Below are positions 5,928-44,183 of a stretch of 64,000 nucleotides of DNA, piece after piece. The stretch comes from Mobula hypostoma. Its lineage: Eukaryota. The notes under the pieces were generated by a model, which was given only the letters and a program-made list of their open reading frames with translations, made no database searches and had not been told where the DNA came from. Where the stretch lies: assembly GCF_963921235.1 (NCBI RefSeq), contig NC_086108.1:29824001-29888000 (forward strand). Reading direction: 5' to 3'. The translations under genes were made by a program, and so were the position numbers. The first letter of the stretch is position 1; every line of letters starts with the position of its first letter.

Positions 5928-8900
5928 TATAAACAAGAAAAGATCTGTAGAAGCTGGGAGTCAAAGTAATACACACAAAATGCTGGAGGAACTCAGCAGG
6001 CCAGGCAGCATCTATGGAAATGTGTAAACAGTTGGCGTTTTAGGCCGTGACCCTTCATTAGGACTTGAAGAAAGAGATGAGAAGTCAGAGTAAGAAGGTG
6101 GGTGGAGAGGGGAGGAAGAAGTGCAATGTAGTAGGCGATAGGTGAAACCATGAGAGGAGGAGGGGTGAAGGGATATTTCTGATCGCGTCCAAGTTATCCT
6201 GAAGTGGGAGGGTGAGGAGCCAGAGGTTGTGGTACAAATAGGTACCAATGACAAAGGTAGGAAAAGGGAAGAGGTACTGAAAGGAGAATATAGGGGGCTG
6301 AGAAGAAGGACCACAAAGGTAGTAATCTCGGGATTACTGCCTGTGCCTCCCGACAGTGAGAGTAGGAAAGGAAAGAGGTGGAGAATAAATGTGTGGCTGA
6401 GGGATTGGAGCAGGGGGCAGGGATTCAAGTTTCTGGATCATTGGGACCTTTTTTGGGGTAGGTGTGACCTGTACAAAAAGGACGGGTTGCAGTTGAATCC
6501 TAGGGGGATCAATATCCTGGCGGGGAGATTTGCGAAGGCTGCTGGGGAGACTTTAAACTAGAATGGTTGAGGGGTGGGAATCAGATTGAAGAGACTAGCA
6601 GAGAGGAGGTTAGTTCACAAATAGAGAAAACTGGTAGACAGTGTATGAAGGAGGATAGGCAGGTGACAGACAAGAGGAGTGCTCAGACCGAAGATGCAGG
6701 GGAGAAGGAAGAAAAAAGTAATAAAGTTGTTTGCACCATTAGGGATAAACAGAGAATAAGAGGTGGAGAGTTTCTTAAATGCATCTATTTCAATGCTAGG
6801 AGCATTGTAAGAAAGGTGGATGAGCTTAGAGCATGGATTGATACCTGGAAATATGATGTTGTAGCTATTAGAGAAACATGGTTGCAGGAGGGGTGTGATT
6901 GGCAACTAAATATTCCTGGATTTCGTTGCTGCCGGTGTGATAGAATTGGAGGGGCAAGAGGGGGAGGTGTTGCATTGCTTGTCAGAGAAAATATTACAGC
7001 GGTGCTTTGGCAGGATAGATTAGAGAGCTCATCTAGGGAGGCTATTTGGGTGAAATTGAGGAATGGGAAAGGTGTAGTAACACTTATAGGGGTGTATTAT
7101 AGACCACCTAATGGGGAGCGAGAATTGGAGGAGCAAATTTGTAAGGAGATAGCAGATATTTGTAGTAAGCACAAGGTGTGACTGTGGCAGATTTTAAGTT
7201 TCCACACATAGACTGGGAAGTCCATTCTGTAAAAGGGTTGGATGGTTTGGAGTTTGTAAAATGTGTGCAGGATAGTTTTTTGCGGCAATACATAGAGGTA
7301 CCAACTAGAGAAGGGGCAGTGTTGGATCTCCTATTAGGGAATGAGATAGGTCAGGTGACGGAGGTATGTGTTGGGGAGCACTTCGGGTCCAGTGATCACA
7401 ATGCCATTAGTTTCAATATAGTTATGGAGAAGGATAAGACTGGACCCAGGGTTGAGATTTTTTGATTGGAGAAAGGCTAACTTTGAGGAGATGTGAAAGG
7501 ATTTAGAAGGAGTGGATTGGGACAATTTGTTTTATGGGAAGGATGTAATAGAGAAATGGATGTAATTTAAAGGTGAAATTTTGAGGGTACAGAATCTTTA
7601 TGTTCCTGTTAGGTTGAAAGGAAAGGTTAAAATAGCCATGGTTTTCAAGGGACATTGGAAACTTGATTCAGAAAAAGAGAGAGATCTACAATAAATATAG
7701 GCAGCATGGAGTAAATGAGGTGCTCGAGGAGTATAAAGAATATAAAAAGAATCTTAAGAAAGAAATTAGAAAAAACTAAAAGAAGATACGAGGCTGCTTT
7801 AGCAAGTAAGGTGAAAATAAATCCAAAGGGTTTCTACAGTTATATTAATAGCAAAAGGATAGTGAGGGATAAAATTGGTCCCTTAGAGAATCAGAGTGGA
7901 TGGCTATGTGCGGAGCCAAAAGAGATGGGGTAGATTTTGAACTGTTTCTTTTCTTCGGTATTCACTAAGGAGAAGAATATTGAATTGTGTAAGGTAAGGG
8001 AAACAAGTAGGGTAGTTATGGAAACTATGATGATTAAAGAAGAGGAAGTACTGGCACTTTTAAAAAATATAAAAGTGGATAAGTCTCCAGGTCCTGACAG
8101 GATATCCCCTTGGACCTTGAGTGAAGTTAGTGTAGAAATAGCAGGGGCAATGACAGAAATATTCAAATGTTATTAGAAACGGGGATGGTGCCGTAGGATT
8201 GGCGTGTTGCTCATATGGTTCCATTGTTTACAAAGGGTTCTAAGAGTAAACCTAGCAATTATCGGCCTGTGAATTTGACATCAGTGGTGGGTAAATTAGT
8301 GGAATATATTCTTAGAGATGGTATATATAATTATCTGGATAGAGTGTCTGATTAGGAACAGTCAACATGGATTTGTGCGTGGAAGGTCATGTTTGACAAA
8401 TCTTATTGAATTTTTTGAAGAGTTTACTAGGAAAATTGACGAGGGTAAAGCGGTGGATGTTGTCTATATGGACTTCAGTAAGGCCTTTGACAAGGTTCCA
8501 CATGGAAGGTTAGCTAGGAAGGTTCAATCGTTGGGTATTAATATTGAAGTAGTAAAATGGATTCAACAGTGTGGCTGGATGGGAGATGCCAGAGAGTAGT
8601 GGTGGATAACTGTTTGTCAGGTTGGAGGCCGGTGACTAGTGGTGTGCCTCAGGGATCTGTACTGGGTCCAATGTTGTTTGTCATATATATTAATGATCTG
8701 GATGATGGGGTGGTAAATTGGATTAGTAAGTATGCAGATGATACTAAGCTAGGTGGTGTTGTGGATAATGAAGTAGGTTTTCAAAGCTTGCAGAGATTTA
8801 GGCCAGTTAGAAGAGTGGGCTAAAAGATGGCAGATGGAGTTTAATGCTGATGAGTGTGAGGTGCTACATTTTGGTAGGACTAATCAAAATAGGACGTACG

Positions 8901-16054: not shown

Positions 16055-18360
16055 AGATCATAAGACATAGGAGCATAACTAGACCACTCTGCCCATCGAG
16101 TCTGCTCCACCATTCCATCATCTTTGATTTATTATCCCTCTCAACCCTGTTATACCCAATGGCTAAAAAAAATTCCTTCTCATCTCTGTTCTGTGGACAT
16201 CCGTCTATTCTGAGGCTGGGCCCTTTGGTCCTAGATTCCACCACTATAATAAACATCCTCTCCATATCCACTCCATCTAGGCCTTTCAGAATCCTATAGG
16301 TTTTGATAAGATCCCCATCATTCTTCTGAACTCCAGTGAGTACAGGCCCAGAACCATTAAACGCTCCTCATACATTAACCCTTTCATTCCTTAATCATTC
16401 CTGTGAACCTCCTCTGGACTCCCTCCAATGCCAGCACATCTTTTCTTAGATAAGGGCCCTAAACTGCTCACAGTACTCCACGTGTGGTCTGACCAGTGCC
16501 TTATAAAGCCTAGCATCACGTCCTTGCTTTTGTATTCTAGTTCTCTTGAAATGAATGCTAACATTGCATTTGCCTTCCTCACCACCGACTCAACTTGCAA
16601 GTTAACCTTCAAAGAATCCTGCACAAGGACTCCTAAATCCCTTTGCACCTCTAATATTTGAATTTTCTCCTTGTTTAGAAAATAGTCTCTGCCTTTATTC
16701 CTTCTAGCAAAAGTACATGACCATACACTTCTGTACACTATATTCCACCTGGCACCACTTTGCCATTCTCCCAATCTGTCCAGATTGTTCACCAGATTCC
16801 CTGCTTCCTGACACTACATGCCCTCCACTTGTCTTCATATCATCTGCAAACTTGGCCATAAAGCTATCATTTCTAGCATGAAAATTGTTGATATATAATA
16901 TGAAAAGAAGCGGTCCCAATACTGAACCCTGCAGAACACCAGCTGCCAACCAGTTTAGGCTTGCTTTATTTCGTATACTCTGGGCATAGAAATATAAATC
17001 CTTCAGTCCTATATTAATCACCCTTTTCAATTTTGCTCCCACATGACACCAGCTCAACCAACTGACTGAAATTTTGTCCTTTCATCTGCCTGTCCTTCTT
17101 CAGTCTCACTACAAATTGCATCTATTTGTATTTCAACCACCCCATCCTTAGTCCTATCACTCCTGTTCCCATCCCCCCACCAACTTAGTTTAAACCTTCC
17201 CCAATAGCTCTAGCTAAACAGCCTGCAAGGATATTTGTCTACCTCAGGTTTAGGTGTAACCCATCCTTTTTGTACAGGTCATACATTCCCCAGAAGAGAT
17301 CCCAACGATCTGGAAATCTGAAACCATGCCCCCTCCATCACTTCCTCAGCCACTCGGTCATCTGTACTGGCATCCTATTCCTGCCCTGTCTAGCACGTAG
17401 TACTGCGAGTAATCCAGAGATTACTTCCTTGAAGATCCTGCTCGTCAGCCTCCCCTAACTTCCTGCTCTCTCTGCTCAGAACCTCTTCCCCTTTTCTACC
17501 TATGTCATTGGTGCCAATGTGTACCATGACCTCTGGCTGCTCACCCTCCCCCCTGAGAATCTTCTGTTGCCACTCTGAAACATCCTGGGCCCTAGCACCA
17601 AGGAGGCAACACATTATCCTGGTTTCTCTTTTTCAGCCTTAGAATCTGCTGTCTGTCCCTCCAACTATCGAGTCTCCTATCACTACCACTCTGTCTGACT
17701 TTAACTTTCCCTGTTGAGTCTCAGAGCTGGCCACAGTACTACTGTGCCCTGATGGGTCATCCCCTCTAGCGGTATCCAAAGGGGTCTACCTGGTGCTGAG
17801 GGGAATGGCCACAGGTAAACCCTGCACTGACTGCTTCCTCCCATTACTTCTCCTAGCTGTCAATCTATTGAAGCAGCCAGTCACTAGCATTGGAATTCTT
17901 ATTCAATGCACTCAGGGTGTGATCACCTCAGTTAAAGTCTCATCTGTGAAGTTTTCATTCTCCCAGATGGTTCTAAGTACATCCAGCTCCGGCTCCAGCT
18001 CCAGTTCTTTGACCGTGTCAGTCAGGAGCTGCAGTTAGATGCCCACCCCGTAGATTTAGTCATCAGGGTACCCTGAAATCCCACATCTCACAGTTGGAGC
18101 ATTCTGCTGTTTGATCTACCATCTTGTCAACACTTGTTTTACCTCTATTTTCAACTTAAGTTCTAACCTGCATCTGTTCTCTCCCAAGCCTGACCATCCT
18201 AATACTGGCCCACTCCAAACTATGGCCGCTTTGCTTATACCTTGCTTCTTTTTATTGGACCCTGACAAGTTACTTAACCCAAGCAATCTCCCATTCTGCA
18301 AACAAGTCCCAACAGGCTCCCTGATGGCTAAATCTGCAGGATGGGCACGTAACGGCAGCT
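16055..18360 (-). mobile_element. CR1 LINE with ORF1, 3' end and a large internal deletion in ORF2
   Basis: ORF1 GARAQDV..GEGEQPEVMVHIGTNDIG. The ORF at 16704-17057 fuses the endonuclease start YFYAQSIRNK directly to RT GVLQGSVLGPLLF..FADD. The tail repeat is at about 16055. Confidence 0.9.
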
Positions 18361-38682: not shown

Positions 38683-39524
38683 TTAACAGATCTGGTACTT
38701 TGTCTTCAATGAAAACCTACAGCAGCAAAATTGGGATAAGTTCAAATTTCGCACTTGGAAACTTGACCATTTTTTGTTCACAAGGAAAATACAAGTTAAT
38801 TCCTGTGAATGAGCTGATTTTGAGGGTCAGTCCATGTGAACATCATTCTTGAATGATAATATGTTCTGCAATGGTCTTCCCTACAGCAGAGTGCTACCAA
38901 TTGTGACAGGCTGACCCCTGAGATAGAAGGTTTCCATTTCATGTCTTAATACAAATATTGGACTAATAATTTGAGTATTAAAGATTCAAAAGATTTGAAA
39001 TACATTTACGATTGAAGTATGTATACAGAATGCAACTCTGAGATCTGTCCTCCAGCAGGCAGCAACAAAACAAAAACACTGGAACCATTCAAGAAAACAG
39101 CAAACAACCAACGTGCAAAAAAAGAACAAATTGTGCAAATGGCTAAAAGCAAGCTGACACCATATAGAGCATCAAATGTCAAACCAAGAATCCAGTACTA
39201 TTCTGTTTAGTTCAGTTCAGCATTGTGCTGCTAGCACACTGCAGGCCATATCTTTGACCTGCTTCATTTTTTGGCGATACGTCTTTAAATCACTTGAGCA
39301 AAAGTGGAGGTGTTTGGATTATTTGGCCTTCCAAGACCCTATGGCACTATTTAATGAACAGCAGGAATGTGTATAGTAGTTGCCATTGAAAGTTTGTATG
39401 GTTGTCATCACATCGCTCTATTAGTGAAGCTCTAAAATAGGCAACAAATTCAAGAGTACTTTGTTCACGACATCATTTGGCATTTGTCAAACTCTCGTGT
39501 TAATTCTTCCTGTGTCTCTAGGGT

Positions 39525-39660
39525 CACTTGTGCGGTTTCCGGGTCCTTTAAAAGAATAGAACTGCTGTACCCTGCCACGCATGTCGAAAAAGGCGACTAA
39601 GGAGGGTTGGGCATAAGGTTAGCAACCTTATCCTGTAAAAATAATTATTGCTACAGAAAC
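39525..39660 (+). ncRNA. Structured 5' leader of the RTE element (candidate self-cleaving ribozyme)
   Basis: Several nested stems are visible by eye at the exact 5' end of the element; function is inferred only. Confidence 0.4.
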
Positions 39661-42600
39661 ATTAGCAGCATCAAAACCAAGCCAGTCAGTCTTGGGAGAG
39701 GTAGGGCCTCTTTTGGAGAGCCGTATGACGTGGAGAAGTGAAAGCCAAAAGGAAGCTCCTTCACCGAGAAACCTACTGTCAACCAAGAAGACCTCTAGAA
39801 TGTGAGGACCATGTGTGAAGCTGGGAAAACTCTACAAGTGGCAAAAGAATTTCAGAACAATAAATTAGATATTTTGGGACTCTGAAACTAGATGGACAAA
39901 GTAAGGGCAAGTACAACTCACTTCAGGGGAAACTATCATCTATTCAGGACACATGGAAGAGATTGCACCACACACTGAGGGAGTAGGATTAATGTTATCA
40001 AAACAAGCAAAGGGATCACTTTTGGCTTGGGAAACATCAGGACCCAGGATCGTGTCTGCACCCTTTCACACCAGTAATAGGAGAACAAAGCTAAACATTG
40101 TGTTAGCCTATGCCCCTACAAATGACAAGGATACCATTGTCAAGGAAGATTTCTACAACAGACTGCAAGTACTCCTGGAGAAGATGAAAAGAAGAGACAT
40201 CACCATCCTCATGGGAGATCTTAATGCTAAAATTGGAAATGACAACACAGGATTTGAAGAAATAATGGGGCAGCATAGACTTGGAGACAAACATGAAAAT
40301 GGAGAGCTACTTATAGACTTCTGTGCATTCAACAAAATGGTAACTGGTGGCAGCATATTCCCTCACAAGTGGATCCACAAGGCAACATGGATTTCACTGG
40401 ATCATTGAACAGGAAACCAGATAGACCATATCTGCATTAGTAACAAGTTCAGAAGATCTATGCAGGATATCAGAGTCCTTAGAGGTGTGGACGTGGCATC
40501 AGATCATCATCTTGTTATTGGTAAGCTTCAGCTCAAACTTAAAAGGAACTATGCTGCCACAAGAAAAATGAAAAGCTATGCAACACAATTTCTGAAGGAC
40601 TGAGGAAAAGACAACAATTCAACTTAGTATTGCAGAACAGATTCCAAGCCTTGGAGAACCTAAATGAAGAATCAAGTGTGGAGGGGATCTGGGAACAAGC
40701 CAAAGATGTCTGGACTGGTACATGTGAAGAAGTTCTAAGTAAGAAAGACCACCAACACAAACCATGGATTTCTGCTGAAACACTCAGAAAAATAGAGCAA
40801 AGAAAAGCAAAAAAGGATGCACTTGACAAGAGCATCAAAGACTGTTGCACAGAAAAACTACACGGAAGCAAATAAGAAAGTGAAAGCAAGCATCAGAATG
40901 GACAAAAGAAACTATATTGTAGACCTAACAAAAGAAACAGAGCAGGAAGCATCAAAAGGAAACATGAAAGGACTGTATGACACAACCAAGAAACTCTCTG
41001 GCAAATTTCAACCAGTGGAAAGACCAACTAAGGATAAAGAAGGACAAGTTCTGACAGGAGTTGAGGACCAGACCTAAAGATGGGCTGAACACTTTAAACA
41101 GCTTCTAAACAGAGCATCATCACCAGAACCACCTGTCATCCCACAAGTAGAGAATGACCTAGAGATAGACCGTGGCACTCCTACCAAAGAGGAGATCAGA
41201 ATGGCAATCAAGCTCCTAAAGGATGGTAAAGCTGCAGGACTTCATGGTATATTTCCAGAGACACTCGAGCAGTATATACATATCTATTGAAATGATGCAC
41301 AACATCATAAAAAAGGTCTGGGAAGCAGAAGAAGTACCCAAGGACTGGAGAACAGGACATCTAGTTAAAATCCCTAAGAAAGGAGATCTCCAGGAATGCA
41401 AAAACTACAGAGGGATAATGTTGCTTTCAGTGCCAGGGAAAATTCTGAGCAGAATCTTTGAGAGAGATTGAAAAATGTAGTGGATGAGAAGCTTAGAGAT
41501 GAACAAGCAGGATTTCAACAAAACAGGTCCTGAACTGATCAGATTACAACTCTTAGGATTATCATCGAACAGTCGCTGGAATGGAACACATCACTGTACA
41601 TTAATTTTGTAGATTATGAAAAAGCATTTGACAGCCTGGACAGGGAGAAATTTTTGAAATTAATGAGGCATTTTGGGATTCCAGAGAAGTTAACTAACTT
41701 GGTAAAGAAGATCTATGAAGACATGGAATGCAGAGTAATCCATATAGATCAGTTGTAAGATACTTTCAAGGTGAACACTGGGGTACGACAGGGGTGCTTA
41801 CGGTCCCCCTTTCTCTTCCTGCCAGCGGTGGGCTGGATTATGAAGCAAACAACAGATGGCAAGAAGAATGGAATACAGTGGACATTGTTCAGACAGCGAG
41901 ATGGTCTTGACTTTGCTGATGATTTGGCACTACTGTCACACAGCCATGCCCAGATGCAAGAGAAAACAGATCTTCTAGACTCCACATCACAGAAAATAAG
42001 GCTACACATCCATGTAGGGAAAACAAAATTACTAAAAGTAAATGCAGGAAACAACACAGTTATCCTGAGAAATGCTCCTCTAGAAGAAGTTGAGTCATTT
42101 GTCTACCTGGGAAGCATTATCAACAAGGAAGGAGGTACAGATGAGGATGTAAAGACCAGGATCCAAAAAGCCAGAGGAGCCTTCATAATACTATGTCCAG
42201 TTTGGATGGCAAAAAAACTAAGGTTAAGAGCCAAACTGAGAATCTTCAACTCAAATGTCAAATCTGTTCTCCTATATGGCTCTGAAACTTGGAGACTGAC
42301 ATCAGAAATAATCGAAAAAATCCAGCCCTTCATCAACAAATGCTTGCGTCAGATTTTGGGGCTAACATGGACAGATTATGTGAACAATACAGAATTATGG
42401 CAAAGGACCAACCCGACACCAATGGAGGCAGAGATCAAGAGAAAGAAGTGGTGCTAGATAGGACACACGTTGAGGAAACCCCCAAATAGTATCACCAGAC
42501 AAGCTCTCACATGGAATCCTCAGGGCAAGCGAAATTGAGGTAGGCCCAAGTCCACATGGAGGAGGGGAGTGTTCACCGACACCAGGAGAGTGAGAATGCC

Positions 42601-42696
42601 ATGGTCACAGCTTGAGAGATATGCACAAGATAGGTTGATCTGTAAAGAGGTTGTTGATGGCCTATTCTCACTAGTGAGTTGAAAGGCAGAAGAAGA
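39525..42696 (+). mobile_element. Full-length RTE-clade LINE (Perere-3/SR3-like); single APE-RT ORF at about 39725-42680, disrupted
   Basis: Motifs NVRTM, APHTEGVGLMLSK, AYAPTN, LMGDLNAKIG, HKATWIS.DH, NQIDH, ASDHHL, PKKGDL.EC.NYRGI, GVRQGC, DFADD and VLLYGSETW; (AGA)n tail; 12-bp TSD TGTCTCTAGGGT / TGTTTCTAGGGT (39513-39524, 42697-42708). Confidence 0.95.
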
Positions 42697-44183
42697 TGTT
42701 TCTAGGGTGGATGCTCATGCTTCTCAACAGGTGACTTCCATTTCAATTGCAAAATGTCTTTCTATTTTTATAGGTATGCCTTCAGTTTACGTTGCATTTA
42801 AAAATTGAGCTTGATGTTCAATTTATCCTTATTTCTGACATATCCCTTTTACACTATCTCCCAGATACAAGTAAACATTGGATCATGAACAGCTAAATGT
42901 GTGCCAACTGATCTAGGCATTAACCCTTCCTGATAGTCCCATCTATAGATCAAAATCTTTCAAATAGGTGTCTGCTGCTCTGAAAAACTTGTAGTGATTC
43001 ATTCTGTGCAAAATCATAAACTGATCTTCAGTCCATCTATGTAACTATATACACAACACACGTTTTCTTCTGTTTCACCTTGAGCGATTCCTTTCTTGAG
43101 CTTTTATCCATGTTGATACCACCTTTTTCTAGTAAAGGCCCTTACAGGGGTACTTCATGAAACTTCCTGCTCAGGGATCATTACTAAACCTACTTAGATC
43201 GCTTCAGCCTTCCAACACCCATGCACAGGATCTGTCTAACTTTATGAAACAAATTTAATTGACTTTTATTTTTGACTCCAGAAGCTGTCAGCGTAATTTG
43301 GTTTTGAATTTGCTGAGAATGACATACTTGGAAACCTTGGATAAAGGGCTTACATTTAAATACTGCACTTTACTGTTCCTTTTCAGGATACACTAAGTAT
43401 ATTGCATAAAATGAAATATCTTGAAGTATAGTTGTTGTAACGCAAGAACCTCAGCAACTAATATATGCCAACTCACACTAGTCTTTCCCTCTCAAGCACT
43501 GTAGTAATGACTGAATTCCATTAGTGTTGTTTGAGTTAAATATTGGCATTTCCTCTGCAGGGAAATATAGCCTGTGTCACAGCAACAGAAAACTATGGTT
43601 GTCATTACATTTCTCTAAGGTGTCCTTAAGCATGGCATTATCCAACAATGCAAAATTGCCCTAGTGTTTCACTAATGTAAGCTAGATTGTTTCATTACTT
43701 CAATCTAATTAATGAGTTAGGGTACAAATGCCCATTTCCAGTTGAGGTTGTGCAACATTTGTGTCAGTGGCATCCTTAGTCATGCTAATGCATTTGAGAT
43801 CCAAAAATGGTCATTAAAAATCCAGAATTGAAATAGTAATAGCTGAATGTATGCTAGGTGGGATGTTGTTAAAACATAATGTTTAGTTTTGAGTAAATAT
43901 GTGTCAATGCATGAAGAATGTTGAGCCTCTGGGAAAAGATAAAGACATTTTCTCTTTTCCCATACATGACTGAGCAACTTAGGCTTTTAATTAAAATTTG
44001 TGAAGGTTGCTAAGAAATAAACTAGGCATGTTTTTCTGCCATTCAGTAAGATCATTTCTGAACCTTGTAATTCAAGGCAAATTTTTAAAATATCTCTGAA
44101 ACTGTTTATCTCAGTCCTGACTATACTCACATCTGAACGGCCATAGGATTCAAGGTTTGCAGGATGTTTGCATCCGTCTAAAA

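Follow-up and report, generated by a model that had tools for sequence, protein, structure and literature searches.

What occupies the exact 5′ end of the RTE-type LINE present in the window, i.e., the whole 64,000-nt stretch of DNA analyzed here? The original prediction placed there a candidate self-cleaving ribozyme of unassigned class, and every sequence that it quoted was found where it had been located. The host element is a decayed RTE-type LINE of 3.17 kb flanked on both sides by copies of a 12-bp TSD that agree at 11 of 12 bases (Table 1). Since the upstream copy ends at position 39524, the element begins at 39525, in agreement with the start proposed initially. Although its ORF is badly broken by many stops and frameshifts, RT and DUF6451 remnants were still detected by Pfam, which confirms the RTE-type identity. 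The RNA module at the TSD-defined start is 83 bases long, with approximately 25 near-invariant bases. The window copy departs from the commonest base of its family at five positions of the module, two of them in PK1 and one at the start of the P5 loop; this copy of the module is thus decayed, like the LINE copy as a whole, which is probably inactive.

Table 1. Positions, within the window, of the element's boundaries and of the parts of its 5′ module
Feature	Position	Strand	Remark
5′ TSD tgtYtctagggt	39513-39524	+	identical to 42697-42708 at 11/12 bases
Complete 5′ RNA module (predicted double pseudoknot)	39525-39607	+	same sequence family as the published "LP" head
Element's first base	39525	+	6 nt upstream of the invariant U; G or T in 15/16 other copies
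PK1 5′ strand	39526-39530	+	ACUUG in the window copy, ACCCG in most copies; partner 39540-39544
Single U, loop 1 of first pseudoknot	39531	+	near-invariant, at least 90% conserved
P1 5′ strand, 7 bp, begins with G	39532-39538	+	two-sided changes at 7/7 pairs
PK1 3′ strand CGGGU	39540-39544	+	partner 39526-39530
Variable linker	39545-39552	+	contains the CCUUU of the original prediction
AGAAUA, loop 3 of first pseudoknot	39553-39558	+	conserved; in 7/9 viral matches though absent from the search pattern
P1 3′ strand	39559-39565	+	pairs with 39532-39538
P3 5′ strand UGU	39566-39568	+	partner 39579-39581 (GCA)
P4 5′ strand, within P3 loop	39569-39576	+	partner 39601-39607, second pseudoknot
P3 3′ strand GCA	39579-39581	+	partner 39566-39568
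P5 hairpin GUCG-loop-CGAC + UAA	39583-39600	+	first loop base A in the window copy, U in 16/16 others
RTE leader	39600-39661	+	73-87% identity to leader of twister-headed sister copies
Broken RTE ORF	39725-42690	+	RT and DUF6451 by Pfam; endonuclease-like part by eye
3′ TSD	42697-42708	+	after GAA-repeat tail ((GAA)n remnant)

A DNA search of the 3.48-Gb genome returned 40 scored matches, 18 of which belong to the family of the window LINE, and in 17 of these 18, counting the window copy, the module is present and begins at the same point. For boundary analysis, 17 further family copies were retrieved at full length. An unambiguous TSD was present in the window copy and six others, and in all seven exactly one base (G in four, T in two, C in one) lies between the TSD and ACCCGTG; four of the remaining copies have a compatible but ambiguous TSD and seven have no usable one. 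Twelve of the other 22 genome matches were also retrieved. What they have in common with the window element is the leader from 39600 on only, and a twister-like head stands in place of the module, as matched by the twister-P1 model in 3 of the 12 loci at scores below gathering. One RTE leader is thus joined to two different heads within one genome, and the proposal that the module sits in a ribozyme slot was borne out. The twister-headed loci (L019 to L030) are short RTE-derived copies starting at that head, with approximately 60 to 125 nt of leader in common with the window element and no ORF similarity to it within 1.5 kb. Five other loci (L257, L264, L265, L269, and L271) are internally deleted, two-ended copies of the window RTE family with differing junctions, four of them with clear TSDs, indicating that the family spawns bipartite derivatives. 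In the one RNA-seq run analyzed, the contig stops before the motif. A search of this genome for HDV families, intended as a positive control, found nothing.

The shared leader and slot are what would be expected if the module were a so far undescribed kind of self-cleaving ribozyme, one that releases the LINE RNA from a co-transcript by cutting immediately upstream of PK1 and that can be exchanged for twister or HDV-like heads. The sharp 5′ ends, with a single base between TSD and ACCCG, point the same way, as do precedents in RTE and Ingi elements, which use 5′ ribozymes according to the available text of PMC6765202, PMC8501958, and PMC5786205. As will be seen, we nevertheless consider such a ribozyme unlikely, if a serious contender.

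We then examined the fold. Comparison of homologs predicts two tandem stacked pseudoknots, PK1 with the 7-bp P1 followed by the 3-bp P3 with P4, and a P5 hairpin (GUCG-UAARAGG-CGAC-UAA) inserted in the last loop. The module initially described is therefore real, although its start had been set at 39532, thus leaving out the PK1 5′ strand; likewise, the P1, P4, and P5 stems had been recognized while PK1 and P3 had been overlooked. Covariation was assessed in an alignment of 24 hand-picked representatives from 161 parsed copies; since the aligned sequences are related by descent, the control comparisons are not probabilities. P1 (GCGGUUU/GAACUGC) was 84.5% paired with both sides changed at 7/7 pairs, compared to at most 47.4% when the entire structure was slid. 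P3, which had not been predicted beforehand, was revealed by RNAalifold immediately 3′ of P1 and was 90.3% paired versus 58.8% in shuffles, with 24 two-sided changes. For PK1, 82 of 88 cells were paired versus 65.5 in partner swaps, a figure inflated by per-sequence register optimization, and 78% were paired in the unadjusted alignment; the outer PK1 pairs are missing in L046 and L051. P4 (ACCCU/AGGGU) was also backed by partner swaps (107 paired versus 90.9) and is weak in L045, L049, and L163. The P5 stem was 95.8% paired, but AGAAUA and the outer P5 pairs were preset by the search pattern. Conversely, the loop-loop pairing CCUUU/AAAGG suggested at first did not hold, being paired in 58.8% of cases, i.e., at shuffle level, with zero covariation and a CCYY partner in just 1 of 22 family representatives. 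In an H-type pseudoknot, a 7-bp stem would be expected to be crossed by a single U, as here. The window copy alone folds no better than shuffles (z of +1.24, +0.23, −1.34, and +0.10 for four stretches), and the evidence for the fold is thus comparative. Inspected by eye, scallop copies outside the model set, taken from the available supplement of PMC4758252, also show these helices; they have AGAAU as a variant, and their 5′ ends are ragged by up to 3 nt. Taken together, the compensatory pairs and the RNA-virus copies described below show that the function acts at the RNA level.

No Rfam family matches the module. A scan over 39300-40000 gave no match at E ≤ 10, and seven homolog loci gave just one unrelated opposite-strand match (E 4.5); hatchet, twister-sister, hammerhead, hairpin, and glmS had no covariance match in either set. 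As first noted, the twister core is absent from the module, which does not match the Rfam twister model although that model weakly matches the sister copies. The resemblance to HDV P4-J4/2 or pistol P1 initially perceived in the hairpin did not withstand comparison of strand order. HDV-like ribozymes have a 7-bp helix, a 3-bp helix, and CUAA before the last strand, nested in the order P1-P2-P3-L3-P3′-P1′-P4-J4/2-P2′. In the module, P3 comes after P1′, and an HDV descriptor (run without a positive control) gave no fit in nine sequences. Moreover, an element headed by an HDV-like ribozyme would start at G1 of the 7-bp P1, while the elements observed start 7 nt before that G; a cut between the conserved U and G, where HDV-like ribozymes cleave, is also excluded since copies retain 6 nt upstream. 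In pistol ribozymes, the pairing partner of the hairpin loop covaries with it and precedes a GCG. The module loop is invariant without a conserved partner, there were no pistol fits in seven of nine sequences and unshared fits in two, and Rfam gave no pistol match. Identity with the Nin-DC SINE domain was rejected since the sequence given as Lottia_Nin in the supplement differs from the module, and five motif strings of HRIMA were unmatched in one supplement.

Nonetheless, the module resembles the HDV-like ribozymes of R2, RTE, L1Tc, and Ingi (available text of PMC11331408 and PMC6765202) in its double pseudoknot, in its helices of 7 bp (with an initial G) and 3 bp, in a linker that is long and variable, and in CUAA preceding the last strand, but its pseudoknots are tandem rather than nested and its 3-bp helix lies after P1, not within it. 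This double pseudoknot with conserved A and G residues, whose linker can be extended like HDV J1/2, argues for catalysis. The twister T-variants of Perere-3 occupy the same RTE 5′ slot adjoining the TSD (available text of PMC8501958), whereas the module has neither twister core nor twister fold and has just the downstream leader in common with the twister-headed copies of this genome.

To determine the distribution of the module, a wider sequence pattern was used and recovered at least 122 metagenome stretches, in which at least 121 copies were parsed from at least 119 loci. These copies belong to many repeat families, most of which are non-coding elements of approximately 300 nt, and homologs head other RTE and I/Nimb-type elements as well as short non-coding derivatives. 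A GACGTTA-like tail, which we take to be I/Nimb-like, was present in 31 of 81 copies with enough sequence among the matches listed. Because most metagenome copies are short and non-coding, retroelement domains were found by Pfam in only L094, L100, and L190 out of 47 downstream-ORF proteins, among the matches listed. L190 is a two-ORF element with a zinc knuckle in ORF1 (weak, E 0.012) and an APE endonuclease, and L189 and L078 have RTE-like leaders by eye.

The linker of the first pseudoknot is approximately 0 to 20 nt in most homologs and approximately 55 to 140 nt in two families. Short-linker geometry fits 57 copies among the matches listed, and no upstream sequence is common to any two of them; of the other 64 listed, 26 reach the score once a long linker is allowed, some perhaps by chance. 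Apparently truncated families were rejected as truncated since they have long linkers instead. In the families of L061, L079, L101, L105, and L115, the linker (approximately 55 to 140 nt) is simple U-rich or TAAG-repeat sequence and the pairings are kept. In four multi-copy families (n = 28, 12, 8, and 8 among the matches listed), conservation starts 6 nt before the invariant U. The sharp 5′ ends anticipated for this element thus recur at the same distance in five families. The identity of the first base depends on the family (A, G, C, or G/T), and the implied cut site is therefore unconserved. For a ribozyme, the strictly terminal position of the module (0/57 copies with a conserved upstream part, among the matches listed) is favorable, while a cut site without a conserved base or pairing is not.

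The viral copies were initially searched for with an 18-base hairpin pattern that did not require AGAAUA. This pattern returned nine viral loci, seven of which had AGAAUA upstream. Four distinct contigs carry RNA-virus domains, i.e., a tetravirus-type capsid, a totivirus-type RdRP, a nodavirus capsid, and a tombus-type RdRP, and the distance from a stop codon to the motif start is 9, 22, 4, and 72 nt, respectively. From motif end to contig end there are 27 to 119 nt, although contig ends may differ from genome ends. An unclassified 6.1-kb contig contains two tandem motif copies 99 nt after an ORF, and in a 212-kb AT-rich DNA-virus contig the motif lies between two genes. Relaxed viral patterns gave only the known loci and chance matches, and a phage search gave no match to the module. 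Two viral contigs (L039 and L043) have the P5 hairpin and a P4-like pairing without AGAAUA (23.7 bits), which may represent a partial module or chance.

Since ORFs adjoin the module in LINEs and viruses alike (in the large DNA virus, L046, an ORF lies downstream of it), it could promote translation independently of a cap, resembling an IRES at LINE 5′ ends and acting as a 3′ enhancer or readthrough signal in viruses; HDV-like heads are likewise thought to help translation (available text of PMC6765202). We regard this as very unlikely, since non-coding derivatives keep the module with intact pairing, the fixed 5′ boundary would be left unexplained, and the distance from stop codon to motif ranges from 4 to 119 nt, unlike a readthrough signal.

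The function that we tentatively place first, though at a little short of an even chance, is suggested by analogy with viral xrRNAs: the module may set and protect the LINE 5′ end by stalling a 5′-to-3′ exoribonuclease (Xrn1/Xrn2). The element would be co-transcribed from a host promoter or intron; decapping, cleavage, or debranching would open the RNA, and the nuclease would degrade the flank and stop at the base of PK1, leaving a unit-length protected RNA that could serve reverse transcription. A stall of this kind in viruses would yield a 3′ subgenomic RNA. As a functional class, xrRNAs block Xrn1 without proteins and have a 15- to 16-nt ring around the 5′ strand, and in the module the P5 loop docked on AGAAUA could close a loop of approximately 15 nt. 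In plant-virus xrRNAs, Xrn1 stops at the base of the first helix. The module has at least one pseudoknot with its 5′ boundary at the first helix, as seen in the four metagenome families and in 7/7 clear-TSD copies of this genome, and its viral locations are 3′ UTRs or intergenic sites (4/4 classified RNA-virus contigs, the unclassified contig, and the DNA-virus site). The known xrRNAs, i.e., flavivirus classes 1 and 2, plant-virus class 3, and coremin, are also compact pseudoknotted RNAs at the start of viral 3′ UTRs (available text of PMC8374639, PMC12397905, and PMC10520033), sometimes in tandem and with a 5′ boundary at the first-helix base. Their sites are 3′ UTRs and intergenic regions, where they often follow one another (PMC8374639 and PMC12397905, available text), and the viral motif is similarly placed just past stop codons and is tandem in the fifth contig. 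Unlike them, the module has no three-way junction, consists of two tandem pseudoknots, and resides mainly in host retrotransposons. The coremin type was rejected, as its first hairpin (GUC-YGAD/YGNNAD-GAC) is absent from the module.

Several observations speak for an exonuclease block. The approximately 300-nt non-coding derivatives retain the fold, indicating that coding is not needed and that the role concerns making or protecting the 5′ end, and both the compensatory changes and the RNA-virus copies point to the RNA level. In linear RNA viruses, a cut would detach the 3′-terminal 100 to 190 nt from the coding RNA, which is difficult to reconcile with a ribozyme; the viral 3′-UTR copies and the would-be scissile site, unconserved in base and pairing, thus favor stalling. 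In addition, the 5′ ribozyme fold of R2 has been proposed as a shield against 5′-3′ exonucleases (available text of PMC11331408). Against stalling, the module occupies a slot otherwise held by twister and HDV-like ribozymes, its near-invariant bases would suit a catalytic core just as well, AGAAUA would lie alongside PK1 in the direction of the 5′ end, and no known xrRNA class is matched, whether by Rfam or by the coremin loop rule. Viral ribozymes, mostly found in 5′ UTRs, exceptionally occur in 3′ UTRs (available text of PMC13725137). Furthermore, just four RNA-virus contigs could be classified, with ends that may not be genome ends, and the lack of a conserved upstream head in intact copies (0/57 among the matches listed) suits cleavage equally.

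An internal promoter would likewise give sharp 5′ ends, and this function has been put forward in print. Matetovici et al. (2016; PMC4758252, available text) described a head of approximately 70 bp common to two Nimb LINEs, a turtle RTE, and mollusc SINEs and named it LINE promoter; the bearers of this "LP" head are the mollusc LP-SINEs, Nimb-17_LMi, I-3_DR, and RTE-9_CPB. By eye, the module belongs to this 5′-terminal sequence of approximately 70 nt of Nimb/RTE LINEs and short derivatives in both sequence and geometry: the "Nimb-17 homology" rows and Pan_3 of the supplement have AGAAU and CG-UAAGAGG-CGACUAA at the 5′ end. The available text proposes a promoter and gives no structure, viral copies, or twister swap. 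Should the head mark a transcription start, the RNA fold would have a second job, e.g., binding LINE proteins or stabilizing the RNA. The same text notes poly(A) signals in LP-SINEs and cites the 77-bp head of ingi/L1Tc, which is both promoter and ribozyme. We find this account improbable: a promoter acting as DNA would account for neither the compensatory changes in the stems nor the presence of the module in RNA viruses, and the available text reports no promoter test.

Novelty thus seems to lie in the fold and the viral copies, neither of which we saw in print, and not in the sequence, published in 2016. Searches of the openly available literature on the motif, LINE ribozymes, xrRNAs in retrotransposons, and LP-SINEs listed no description of the fold, so that one elsewhere is possible. 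The RTE 5′-UTR domain of Kojima 2018 (available text) is different and internal. The module is a real structured RNA of wide occurrence, whose sequence is known and whose fold and distribution are apparently undescribed.

Quite possibly, though at somewhat less than even odds, the module founds a new xrRNA class in animal genomes, one that is passed around as a unit among RTE LINEs, I/Nimb LINEs, and unrelated RNA viruses and takes the place of self-cleaving ribozymes as the 5′-end device. It would then be a host-genome xrRNA, such as the cellular xrRNA anticipated in the available text of a review (PMC8374639), and give retrotransposons, in addition to promoters and ribozymes, a third means of fixing where they start, explaining the precise and stable 5′ ends of promoterless LINEs and SINE-like derivatives without cutting. 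If instead the module cleaves, it would be a new small-ribozyme class across animals, an outcome that we consider doubtful. The so far unexplained "LP" head gains a testable function, with an RNA device exchanged between LINE clades and RNA viruses, and the module becomes a candidate 5′ stabilizing part for RNA-template gene insertion.

The search of genome contigs gave 23 pattern matches, five of them above 40 bits with the model, and a bacterial occurrence was rejected. L184 sits in a eukaryote-like contig end and was found in 0/120 relatives, L189 and L190 are both retroelements, and of the remaining two, L179 and L186, the latter has a retroposon-like tail. Eukaryote-like repeat DNA makes up L184:1-550 and L189 within bacterial MAG contigs, which are likely chimeric assemblies. 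In a symbiont scaffold (NZ_JRAA01000003.1, 515929-521973), the module-headed two-ORF LINE of L190 follows bacterial DsrE and DUF6394 genes, representing host contamination, misassembly, or a real insertion. Elsewhere in the window, 6169-7178 (+) contains what is left of a GDSL-lipase-like ORF1 and, after it, an endonuclease domain, an arrangement typical for the 5′ part of CR1/L2-type LINEs, and a further reverse-transcriptase remnant lies at 16707-17081 (−).
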